Source of the DNA: Promethearchaeota archaeon
Lineage (GTDB): Archaea; Asgardarchaeota; Lokiarchaeia; Sigyniarchaeales; SOKP01
Assembly (NCBI GenBank): GCA_048937405.1
Contig: JBHLNF010000002.1
Span: forward strand, 224,001 to 288,000
Direction: 5' to 3'
DNA length: 64,000 nt
The notes below the pieces were generated by a model. The model saw nothing but the letters and a program-made list of their open reading frames with translations. It was not told where the DNA came from and did not search any database. Positions 20,305 to 22,685 of the stretch are shown piece by piece. Both the position numbers and the translations under genes were made by a program. Within the stretch, counting starts at the first letter, position 1. Each line of letters begins with the position of its first letter.

Positions 20305-21243
20305 TCAGTTATTACTTTTGTAATCTCGATTTTTTTTCTTTCCTTCCACCTGGTTTTTAGCAATATCTCTAGCTTTTTGTTCTTTTTCCAAAAATTCTGT
20401 TTCTATTCTTTTTTCTAGTTTATCTGCTTCAATTGCATATTTTTTCTCAGCTAATTTTGCTTTAGCATTCAATTCAACTTGTTCACGTTCAAAAGCTTTC
20501 TTTGCAGCTTCAAGTTCCATTTTTTTAGCCTCTAATTCTTGTTTTTGCTTTAGGAGCTCAAGCTCATCAATCAATTCTGATTTTTCTCTCTCAGTTCTAT
20601 ATAATGTCTCCATTCCTGCTGGATTTTGTATCCCGAGTATATTTAAGCTTTCAAGTTCTAAACCATAACTTATAAATTCATCAATGATTTTTGATATAAT
20701 CATATTTACTACACGTTCCCTATCTTCTAAAATTACATTCTTTGCTTCATAACTCTTAAATATATCTCTCATCGAAGTTTGTAGTAGACTTATAATCCAA
20801 TTCCGTAAATCTTTTACAATCCAATTCTTTTTCCCTGCAACAATTTCAGAATAAAATAATTTAACATCAATAATTTTTAATTTCAAAGTTCCATGAAGTC
20901 CTATTATATATCCATCTTTGGTAGGGATACCATTTGATTGTGGTACACCCCATTGAATTTCGAGAACTGAATTATCTATCCATACTATCTCTGTGCCTTT
21001 AATTTTTGCCTTTTTATCGATTTCATAGACGCCACCCCCCAATACTCCCATCAACTTGCCTTTACTATAAAATAATGCTTTCTCATAATCCTTGACAACA
21101 AAATAATTGATTTTTTTGATGTTATCACCTGGTTGAGGATAAATATACATTAAAGGTGTTTCATTTCCCATATCCTTCTTTTGCCATGAAATAATCTTAG
21201 GATCTGAGTCTTTATACTTTTTGTCGTTTAATTTGCTATACAT
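20305..21243 (-). CDS. SPFH (band 7) domain protein with C-terminal coiled coil (YdjI-like)
   Basis: VVKDYEKALFYSKGK...GVYEI, IQWG, GLHGTLKLKI.D, YGLELES.NI, followed by a heptad-rich tail. Confidence 0.8.
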   Translation of the reverse strand: MYSKLNDKKYKDSDPKIISWQKKDMGNETPLMYIYPQPGDNIKKINYFVVKDYEKALFYSKGKLMGVLGGGVYEIDKKAKIKGTEIVWIDNSVLEIQWGVPQSNGIPTKDGYIIGLHGTLKLKIIDVKLFYSEIVAGKKNWIVKDLRNWIISLLQTSMRDIFKSYEAKNVILEDRERVVNMIISKIIDEFISYGLELESLNILGIQNPAGMETLYRTEREKSELIDELELLKQKQELEAKKMELEAAKKAFEREQVELNAKAKLAEKKYAIEADKLEKRIETEFLEKEQKARDIAKNQVEGKKKNRDYKSNN

Positions 21244-21308
21244 TTTTTTTGCCTTCTTCTTTTAAATCATAAATTTATTTATTTTTATTTAAACTTGATA
21301 AACATGAA

Positions 21309-22685
21309 CTATGGTTTTTTTTCTGAAACAATATACCATTGATCACCATGTAAAAATGATTTTGAATATTTTAAAATACCAATTTCAGAAAGATGTTCTA
21401 ATATTTCTCTAATTTTATCTATATGCCAACCTGTTTCACTTACAATATCAGCTATAGAGAATTTTTGCAATTGAATTGCTAAAGTAATTAGTTTTGTCTC
21501 ATCTTCATTTATATCCTGAGGTTTTAATTGAACAACCTTTAGATAATAATCATTACTTCCTTCTATTTTCTTTATTCCTGGAATATATTCTTTATCAGCA
21601 AGTAAATTTACTATTTTTTCTAACTCTTCAATAGTAATAGAAAGTTGAGGTTTTTCATCTAGGACAAGTTGATATAATTCATATAAAGGGACGGTTTCTG
21701 TAATTTCATAATTATGATCTTTTAAGTTTTTCTGACCCTTATTCAATAAGTGAATAAATTCTAAAACTATATTTTTGATTATTTCAAACTTACTCTCCTC
21801 GCTCATAGGTATTTCTATAAGATCCTCTAAAAGATTTATTGTTAATTCATTTTTAGTTATCTGTTTCAATTGTTCCTCAGAAAATACATGAAAATTTATT
21901 TTAATAGATTCTCTTAAATTAATCAATTTAGTAATAAATCTCAACTCCTCTCTTAAATCATTTGTTATCGAAAAAGCACTTGAATATGATTGATTTTCAA
22001 TTAATTGTGATAATCTATTCAGATAATTTGAAATTCTATTTAATTGATTTATAATTAAAGAATTTAAAAATACAATTTCAGCATAAATCTTCTTAGTTTC
22101 TATCTTTGAAGTTGCTTTTTTCTTTTCATCAATTTCTCTTATTTCTTTTTGCAAATCAATAGGAGATTTTGGTATATTAATCATAAAAGTTCTAAGATAC
22201 TTTATACGTTTCAAACTAAAACTTATCAAGTCTTCAAAAACAGGATTATTTAAGTTCAGGACAGGACCTAAAACTTTGCTTAATTCTATTTGAATTTGAT
22301 TTAATTTTGAAATTATTTTTTCTTGAGTTAAATTTTTCCTCTCATTTAATTCATCAAGCTTATGAGGGATATGTATATTATGTAATAATTCATCTTCTAT
22401 ACTAAGAAATTTAATATCATCTTCAATACCATTTGCTTTCTTTATTACTTTAATACCAAATTTAGTTATTTGCCACTTTGGTAAAATTTTATTTTCTTCC
22501 ACTATCCTCTCAACTTGTCCAAATTTCTCTAATTGTAGAAGTATATTCTTTACGACTCGCATCGATATATCTGTATTTTCACTTATATTCCGTATACTTG
22601 ATAATTTTTTTGTTTGATATAAAAACCGTAAAATTTTTTCAATTCCCTGAAGACTTAAGGGTATATCTCTCGAAGATTCACTCAT
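21309..22685 (-). CDS. N-terminal wHTH + coiled coil + C-terminal ESCRT-II (EAP30/Vps22/Vps36)-like tandem winged helices
   Basis: The C-terminus PLYELYQLV...ITIEELEKIVNLL...VQLKPQDINEDETKLITLA...GWHIDKIREILEHL...GDQWY follows the Vps22/SNF8 pattern (TLEELHQQV...SQDDLIRAIKKL...VPAELNMDHTVVLQLA...WETERARQVLEHL). Confidence 0.65.
   Translation of the reverse strand: MSESSRDIPLSLQGIEKILRFLYQTKKLSSIRNISENTDISMRVVKNILLQLEKFGQVERIVEENKILPKWQITKFGIKVIKKANGIEDDIKFLSIEDELLHNIHIPHKLDELNERKNLTQEKIISKLNQIQIELSKVLGPVLNLNNPVFEDLISFSLKRIKYLRTFMINIPKSPIDLQKEIREIDEKKKATSKIETKKIYAEIVFLNSLIINQLNRISNYLNRLSQLIENQSYSSAFSITNDLREELRFITKLINLRESIKINFHVFSEEQLKQITKNELTINLLEDLIEIPMSEESKFEIIKNIVLEFIHLLNKGQKNLKDHNYEITETVPLYELYQLVLDEKPQLSITIEELEKIVNLLADKEYIPGIKKIEGSNDYYLKVVQLKPQDINEDETKLITLAIQLQKFSIADIVSETGWHIDKIREILEHLSEIGILKYSKSFLHGDQWYIVSEKKP

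Follow-up and report, generated by a model that had tools for sequence, protein, structure and literature searches.

An ESCRT-II-type domain in a probable DNA-binding regulator linked to SPFH and Ufm1-like genes in Asgard archaea

We analysed a stretch of 64,000 nucleotides, hereafter the window, from a Promethearchaeota archaeon of the order Sigyniarchaeales (Lokiarchaeia; contig JBHLNF010000002.1 of assembly GCA_048937405.1), in which two minus-strand genes are divergently arranged with an operon for a Ufm1-like conjugation cascade. The first of the two genes, an open reading frame (ORF) at 21309..22685, encodes a protein of 458 aa that we name WH458. It combines an N-terminal winged helix-turn-helix (wHTH) and a helical middle with tandem winged helices of the type found in Vps22/EAP30, a subunit of the endosomal sorting complex ESCRT-II, and we propose that it is an autoregulatory transcription factor. 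The second gene, at 20305..21243, encodes an SPFH/Band 7 protein of 312 aa. On the other side of WH458, a gap of 246 bp leads to a plus-strand gene starting at 22932, the first of an operon in which a UBA5-like E1, a JAB protein, a ubiquitin-like protein (Ubl) and a UFC1-like E2 were found. An earlier sequence-only reading of this DNA had described the divergent gap, the SPFH gene and the UFM1-type neighbour, and all three are confirmed.

The same reading had divided WH458 into an N-terminal wHTH, a helical region and EAP30-like tandem winged helices, and this description is correct. In the AlphaFold2 (AF2) model, built from an alignment of 31 family members and with a predicted local distance difference test (pLDDT) score of 85.5, a winged helix spans residues ~10-84, long helices occupy residues 110-259 with shorter ones up to 315, and two further winged helices follow at residues 330-452. 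The helical middle (residues ~96-315; 21741..22400, minus strand) contains long helices at residues 110-143, 148-170, 194-230 and 234-259 according to DSSP of the model; it returned generic helical matches only in Foldseek and VIA-align, and its modelled shape is that of a possible dimerisation bundle. The family comprises 166 near-full-length matches of ~460 aa, all named hypothetical or generic. Most are labelled Lokiarchaeota or Promethearchaeota, with a few from bins labelled Thor-, Hod-, Hermod- or Odinarchaeota.

The C-terminal domain (residues 329-452; 21330..21701, minus strand) is a true Vps22/EAP30 homologue. The Pfam match is weak: the EAP30 family (PF04157) matches residues 325-438 at 20.1 bits, under its gathering cut-off of 26.8, and reaches E ≤ 0.01 in 7 of the 31 family members (best 3.3e-4). 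A PDB sequence search with the WH458 profile gave nothing at E ≤ 1. Three other routes converge on the same family. Residues 329-452 aligned by hhalign with canonical Asgard Vps22-like proteins, including the copy encoded in the same genome, at 99.05% (E 2e-18, 120 columns). The top PDB matches of the model in Foldseek were human EAP30 (2zme_A and 3cuq_A, 1e-4) and yeast Vps22 (1u5t_A), with Vps36 chains close behind. The WH458 family profile, finally, matched Vps22-like genes of ~240 aa in ~90 Asgard genomes at 1e-11 to 1e-16, among them the one on contig C20 of the source genome, and the far phmmer matches of the WH458 C-terminus are proteins that themselves pass Pfam EAP30. These three routes establish the EAP30 homology that had been suspected from the sequence.

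Such homology over the tandem winged-helix core is a point for reading WH458 as a functional ESCRT-II subunit, which would pair with the canonical Vps22 in the manner of Vps36, bind Vps25 and pass tagged cargo on to ESCRT-III. Asgard ESCRT-II has been described as Vps22 plus Vps25, and reports that Asgard genomes are without Vps36 and that Vps22 homodimerises count in favour of the same reading (PMC9192718). We nevertheless regard it as very improbable. The sole Vps25 gene of the source genome lies together with a canonical Vps22-like gene (237 aa), Vps4 and Snf7 on contig C20, away from WH458. No ESCRT gene adjoins WH458 in the loci with listed genes, nor was one seen among the seven module families searched in the other loci. 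Distribution was surveyed in 399 Asgard genomes, with subsets of 133 genomes for the family and 53 for the genus besides the source genome; full-length WH458 is patchy, occurring in 31 of the 399, all within one order, whereas Vps22-like genes are widespread. Compared with Vps22/EAP30 (SNF8, and the Asgard Vps22-like proteins), WH458 is alike in profile and fold over its C-terminal 125-165 residues, but it has an additional wHTH of DNA-binding type and ~220 helical residues, and its linkage is to an SPFH gene and a Ufm1-like operon.

The part of WH458 that is best conserved is not the EAP30-like domain but the basic, MarR-like wHTH at its N-terminus (residues 1-88; 22422..22685, minus strand), whose recognition helix and wing are near-invariant among WH458 proteins that are otherwise 46-80% identical. 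This domain has a net charge of +4, against -7 for the C-terminal block of residues 331-458. Pfam TrmB gives a weak match to its wHTH at residues 29-66, and matches 14 of the 31 family members at E ≤ 0.01 (best 6e-7). In VIA-align the domain superimposes on MarR-family chains, some of them DNA-bound, with Z 12.5 and a root-mean-square deviation of 2.2-2.7 Å over 80-85 residues; the VIA-align search with the whole 458-residue model was filled by these N-terminal matches and says little on the rest of the protein.

The divergent gap holds two similar boxes consisting of a transcription factor B (TFB) recognition element and a TATA element (BRE/TATA), and these are real, as had been claimed. One is AAAGATTTAAATA (22751..22763, minus strand), in the WH458-SPFH promoter, and the other is AAAGATTTATATA (22793..22805, plus strand), which faces the Ufm1-like operon and presumably serves it. 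They are the sole exact matches to AAAGATTTAWATA in the window; allowing up to one mismatch, there are 10 matches against 4.4 expected. A scan for bacterial-type promoters and terminators was uninformative for an archaeon.

Alignment of the 200 bp 5′ of WH458 from 19 loci uncovered a palindrome of 16-18 bp with the consensus TGTTCCCATATGGAAACA, followed directly by TTTATATA. In 16 of 20 loci, which come from species with proteins 46-80% identical, its exact core, CCATATGG, stands 54-103 bp upstream of WH458. Among the other four, one has the core in front of two small genes that precede WH458, one carries the one-base variant CCTATATGG, one is degenerate, and one (L024) repeats another locus (L010). 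A TATA-like box stands directly after the palindrome in 18 aligned WH458 promoters, and the intergenic DNA that flanks the palindrome is not conserved. The core by itself occurs in 54 exact copies in the 4.47-Mb genome, ~1 per 83 kb. A position weight matrix made from the sites ranks the window site top genome-wide at 25.8 bits, the runner-up (19.7 bits) being located inside an ORF of 1248 aa.

In the window the palindrome is the predicted operator O1 (22761..22778, with the core at 22766-22773). It abuts the WH458 TATA box and lies between the two divergent TATA boxes, which are ~40 bp apart. A TTTGATCAAA palindrome and a TGGAAA half-site by the plus-strand TATA box (22780..22796) could represent a weaker operator, tentatively named O2; a similar layout, with TTTCCATATGATCAAAA, is found in the other divergent locus (L007), which makes two loci in all. 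The core CCATATGG was absent upstream of p361, the operon's first gene, in the scanned loci where the operon comes first, and from four scanned E2 loci without WH458 (L031, L032, L034 and L038). A regulon search in the source genome located exact TYCCATATGGRA at only two other places, one inside an ORF and one without an adjacent TATA box, and thus gave no further targets. The two loci in which the start of the recognition helix is altered (STR versus SMR) have the most deviant operators, a co-variation of helix and operator that, with two cases, is suggestive at most.

Conservation extends from the promoter to the gene neighbourhood. The UFC1-like E2 occurs in 36 of the 399 genomes surveyed and coincides with WH458 in 16. 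Fifteen of these 16 carry the two genes ≤12 kb apart on one contig, and the 16th has them on separate short contigs. The SPFH gene is next after WH458 in every locus that has downstream sequence. Three arrangements were seen: a divergent one, in the window and in L007; one with WH458-SPFH followed by p361-E1-JAB-Ubl-E2 (L008, L009, L014, L015, L017, L018 and L023); and one with the operon followed by WH458-SPFH (L012, L020, L022 and L025). The linkage that the sequence-only reading had drawn from a single locus is therefore strongly conserved, and its survival through rearrangement is strong evidence of a functional tie.

Taken together, a conserved palindrome touching the TATA box and a basic, near-invariant MarR-like wHTH argue for a DNA-binding autoregulator, a role that the sequence-only reading did not contain. 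With a probability of roughly 0.55, we propose that WH458 is a transcription factor that acts locally and on its own gene, constructed around an ESCRT-II part, with the EAP30-like domain binding a partner. A WH458 dimer would bind the palindrome and, once bound, would control its own gene together with the co-transcribed SPFH gene. In the window, where the palindrome lies between the divergent TATA boxes, WH458 would also control the Cdc48-N-like/UBA5-like/JAB/Ufm1-like/UFC1-like operon, and in the seven loci where the operon follows SPFH in the same direction, the single WH458 promoter would drive everything. The simplest reading of these layouts is that the WH458 site also controls the Ufm1-like operon in at least nine loci (two divergent and seven WH458-first). 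The proposed regulator resembles the archaeal one-component regulators of the TrmB/MarR type in its wHTH fold, its layout and the presence, in its own promoter, of a conserved palindrome abutting the TATA box. It differs from them in that its putative sensing domain is a tandem winged helix of ESCRT-II type and not a small-molecule-binding domain, and in that DNA binding is, in this case, predicted.

Several points weigh against a role as autoregulator. The winged helices of ESCRT-II and UFL1 bind proteins, not DNA, so that the fold of WH458 alone is no proof of DNA binding. WH458 is the predicted binder of the palindrome, but another factor could bind there instead. The plus-strand TATA box is ~127 bp from the p361 start, which is a long leader for an archaeon. 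In the four operon-first loci (L012, L020, L022 and L025), the operon's own promoter has no palindrome, and control of the cascade is accordingly not universal. As to the direction of control, archaeal factors that abut BRE/TATA from upstream can either block TFB and TATA-binding protein or recruit them, so repression and activation cannot be told apart from the position of the site.

The relatives of WH458 outside its order may indicate where such a regulator came from. In Ca. Heimdallarchaeum aukensis the gene order is E1-JAB-Ubl-E2, then a 345-aa EAP30 protein (34 bits, over the Pfam cut-off), then SPFH. In all, four Heimdallarchaeaceae-type genomes have an EAP30-like gene directly upstream of SPFH by the operon, and a further family shows this more weakly. 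Ca. Lokiarchaeum ossiferum encodes a 464-aa fusion in which residues 6-314 correspond to p361 and residues 345-462 to the tandem winged helix of WH458 type, which physically ties p361 to the EAP30-like domain; this fusion forms a conserved family of at least five clusters, with identities as low as 34%. In Heimdallarchaeia the same slot is taken by EAP30-like genes that have no wHTH, which, together with the fusion in Ca. L. ossiferum, suggests that the older role was that of a protein-protein adaptor of the module. The DNA-binding head would then have been added to this adaptor in the Lokiarchaeial order studied here, and the acidic EAP30-like domain would be the partner-binding, or signal, end of WH458.

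Candidate partners are encoded on both sides of the promoter. The SPFH protein passes the cut-offs of Pfam Band_7 (PF01145; 40.5 bits, cut-off 23.6) and Band_7_1 (PF13421; 38 bits, cut-off 24), and has weak sequence matches in the PDB to QmcA and stomatin. Its SPFH domain spans approximately residues 49-215 and is followed by a Glu/Lys-rich helical tail. It has neither a transmembrane helix nor a hairpin anchor (the highest 19-residue Kyte-Doolittle mean is 1.0) and may bind the membrane peripherally. Hydropathy indicated no transmembrane segment in any module protein examined, and the word 'membrane' in the quality-control module proposed by the sequence-only reading consequently rests on knowledge of the SPFH and ESCRT families only. 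A complex prediction for WH458 (alignment A1) with the SPFH protein (A5) scored 0.00 in both runs and, being without controls, is no evidence either way.

On the plus strand, the first operon gene (22932..24017) encodes p361, a 361-aa protein that matches no Pfam family. In its AF2 model (pLDDT 83.7) the first ~175 residues form a Cdc48/p97-N double domain of Ufd1 type, for which Foldseek returned p97 N-domain chains at 2e-8 (probability 1.0, TM 0.70). A long helix, an alpha/beta domain and a CxxC...CxxC zinc ribbon follow. The p97-N/Ufd1 fold binds ubiquitin-fold domains, which makes p361, as modelled, the best candidate for a reader or adaptor of the Ubl. The E1 (24036-24878, plus strand) has UBA5 as its best PDB match (9e-51, compared with 3e-25 for MoeB), and the E2 (26402-26944, plus strand) has a profile that matches UFC1 chains almost exclusively, at best ~1e-3. 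The Ubl (26139-26405, plus strand), of 88 aa, ends in a C-terminal Gly, and its profile found no sequence match in the PDB; what marks it as Ufm1-like is the set of genes it shares the operon with, together with its terminal Gly and structure comparisons in the literature (PMC12962969).

The remaining operon member, the JAB/MPN protein (plus strand), has a frame that is open from 24869, a first common start at 25034 and its end at 26077. The stretch 24869-25034 encodes the conserved Glu-containing N-terminal part, yet no ATG, GTG or TTG occurs before 25034, which points to initiation at a non-standard codon or to coupling with the E1 gene; the JAB frame overlaps the end of E1. The Ubl and E2 genes of the window share an ATGA overlap, and the Ubl as encoded terminates in Gly. 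In five other loci (L009:15674-16483, L012:8401-9210, L025:6283-7095, L034:9584-10402 and L041:6586-7422), Ubl and E2 share one open frame of 270-278 aa, so the modifier must be cut free there, presumably by the JAB protein.

For an autoregulator with a partner-binding end, the mechanism we favour, wholly by analogy, is a partner switch or sequestration, in which SPFH assemblies, the p361-type zinc-ribbon tail or the Ufm1-like cascade would engage the EAP30-like domain and thereby change promoter occupancy. The control of PspF by PspA and of Mlc by PtsG are precedents for sequestration and partner switching. The locus is comparable to Psp-type modules, such as the pspA-ydjGHI operon of B. subtilis with its Band-7 and zinc-ribbon protein (PMC11237479), in having a soluble SPFH protein of Band_7_1 type, zinc-ribbon partners, a dedicated regulator and possibly control by sequestration. 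It differs in that no PspA/ESCRT-III gene is present in the locus and the regulator is unrelated, and the analogy is functional only. Bacterial Psp operons repeatedly pair soluble Band-7 proteins with zinc-ribbon partners (PMC11237479), which is a parallel and no more.

The same neighbourhood can be read without DNA binding. The sequence-only reading had cast WH458 as scaffold (E3-like), reader or substrate in the Ufm1-like cascade, forming a membrane quality-control module with the SPFH protein, in which case its wHTH would bind protein as in UFL1/DDRGK1. The tie of EAP30-like and SPFH genes to the cascade in both Lokiarchaeia and Heimdallarchaeia, including versions without the wHTH, speaks for this, as does the fusion of the EAP30-like domain to the Cdc48-N-like product of the first gene. 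An E3 or adaptor role also appears to be vacant. The source genome encodes, on contig C16 (L029:8840-11212, plus strand), a 790-aa protein with DDRGK, UFL1 (E3_UFM1_ligase), PCI and Vps28 C-terminal domains, an architecture of the Vps28-UFL1 fusion kind that Liu et al. described (bioRxiv 10.1101/2020.10.19.343400). This UFL1-like protein occurs in 113 of the 133 family genomes and the UFC1-like E2 in 20, so the two are not co-distributed.

WH458 is, however, no relative of UFL1 that we could detect. The kinship with UFL1 that the sequence-only reading had asked about found no backing in sequence: hhalign against the 790-aa protein of the same genome gave 0.33%, and neither Pfam UFL1 (PF09743) nor DDRGK (PF09756) matched. 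No UFL1 chain stands among the Foldseek and VIA-align matches listed for WH458, which are dominated by other winged-helix proteins. WH458 shares with UFL1/DDRGK1 its winged helices and a genetic tie to a UFM1/UBA5/UFC1-like cascade, but the genome has a separate DDRGK/UFL1/PCI-Vps28C protein, which is near-universal in the family with or without the operon. A scaffold without DNA binding would also leave the conserved promoter palindrome and the near-invariant basic recognition helix unexplained, and the module proteins are without transmembrane segments. Moreover, WH458-SPFH occurs without Ubl or E2 in two closed genomes (G188 and G143) and two nearly complete ones (G199 and G204), which have marginal matches only (E ~3e-4) to the p361 tail. 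Since the pair persists, its C-domain conserved, in closed genomes lacking Ubl, E2 and a Cdc48-N-like gene, it does not depend on the cascade. As the sole function of WH458, a scaffold or reader role seems to us unlikely, although it is compatible with the regulator model as a second job of the protein.

The two could in fact be joined. It is conceivable, though again we would not bet on it, that the EAP30-like domain supplies the missing adaptor, or an element akin to an E3, to a proto-UFMylation system of Asgard archaea, docking p361, through its zinc-ribbon tail, and the charged E2 onto SPFH assemblies, and that Lokiarchaeia gave it, in addition, a DNA-binding head through which the system's state is signalled to its own promoter. 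UFM1-type tagging, ESCRT-II-type and p97/Ufd1-type components and SPFH scaffolds all occur in eukaryotic membrane and protein quality control. If this proposal were true, these four kinds of component would already have been linked in archaea, with the ESCRT-II-type part as adaptor and the p97/Ufd1-type part as reader.

The patchiness of the module bears on one more explanation, in which the island is an accessory conflict or stress system with Bil-like Ubl, E1, E2 and JAB genes plus SPFH, WH458 does no more than regulate it locally, and membrane quality control of the eukaryote type has nothing to do with it. Distribution is patchy even inside the genus, with E2 found in 4 and full-length WH458 in 9 of the 53 genomes. 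The cargo after WH458-SPFH varies (TPR/HEAT, LRR, PCI winged-helix and Arf-like genes), and one relative has a fusion of SIR2, TPR, Ubl and E2. The island's set of Ubl, E1, E2 and JAB genes is also that of bacterial Bil systems. Against this, a PADLOC comparison (2023 library) with known anti-phage Ubl systems (Bil, CBASS Cap2/Cap3) gave generic E1 matches for the E1, one weak match for the E2, and none for WH458, SPFH, p361, JAB or Ubl. The island's E1 resembles UBA5 far more than it does other E1s, the E2 profile is almost exclusively that of UFC1, and no phage or mobile-element genes were seen beside the island in the window. The patchy distribution and variable cargo keep an accessory stress or conflict role under consideration, without support from PADLOC; we judge it rather improbable in the form stated.

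UFL1 and DDRGK1 have previously been traced to Asgard archaea, with UFM1 and UFC1 called eukaryote-only (PMC10183829), and Asgard homologues of Ufm1 followed in 2026, in an article whose text names neither UBA5 nor UFC1 (PMC12962969). Full-text searches, with most subscription journals outside their coverage, found no paper on the wHTH-EAP30 architecture, the operator or the EAP30-SPFH-Cdc48N-Ufm1 neighbourhood. As far as we found, no probable DNA-binding regulator with an ESCRT-II-type domain at its effector end was described before WH458. In our comparison, three further components of eukaryotic flavour accompany the Asgard Ufm1-like cascade, in Lokiarchaeia as well as in Heimdallarchaeia: a Vps22-like protein, a scaffold of the SPFH type and a Cdc48-N/Ufd1-like protein. 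These three are concrete candidates for targets or adaptors of the archaeal Ufm1-like system. The predicted operator makes DNA binding by WH458 directly testable by gel shift. Ca. Lokiarchaeum ossiferum, which carries the p361-EAP30 fusion, is in culture.

Further genes accompany the module in individual loci. In three unlinked settings (L010/L024, at L010:7110-14795; L013, at 3742-4842; and L021, at 12406-15354), one to three TPR/HEAT paralogues come next after SPFH. These share an unannotated C-terminal module of 350 aa, whose end, a helix and a zinc ribbon, resembles the p361 tail (hhalign 86%, 5e-6). A fourth unlinked locus, L042, has a beta-helix (NosD-like) protein after SPFH. Between SPFH and the operon, the inserts at L017:12368-19148 and L015:12271-16867 carry genes for LRR proteins, for a winged-helix protein of PCI type and for an Arf-like GTPase; C-terminal tails are common to several of these proteins. 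The fusion protein with a SIR2-like domain (L035:9831-12431, minus strand, genome G153) is 866 aa long and also contains a TPR region, a segment weakly resembling a Ubl and an E2 domain of UFC1-like type; it looks like a defence or conflict protein.

In the window itself, two paralogues of ~760 aa with an SBBP beta-propeller and bacterial TSP3 repeats lie directly downstream of SPFH (15689-20247, minus strand). A tail formed by their last ~70 residues reappears at the ends of unrelated proteins in five other loci and is reminiscent of a common signal for sorting or anchoring. The SBBP/TSP3 genes were considered as a conserved part of the module and rejected, since only this C-terminal tail recurs elsewhere. 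Beyond the operon, an MFS transporter gene is flanked by a 97-aa AAA_5 piece of MoxR/dynein type (27429-27722), which looks like a gene fragment, and by a 316-aa AAA_5 ATPase gene (29833-30783, minus strand).

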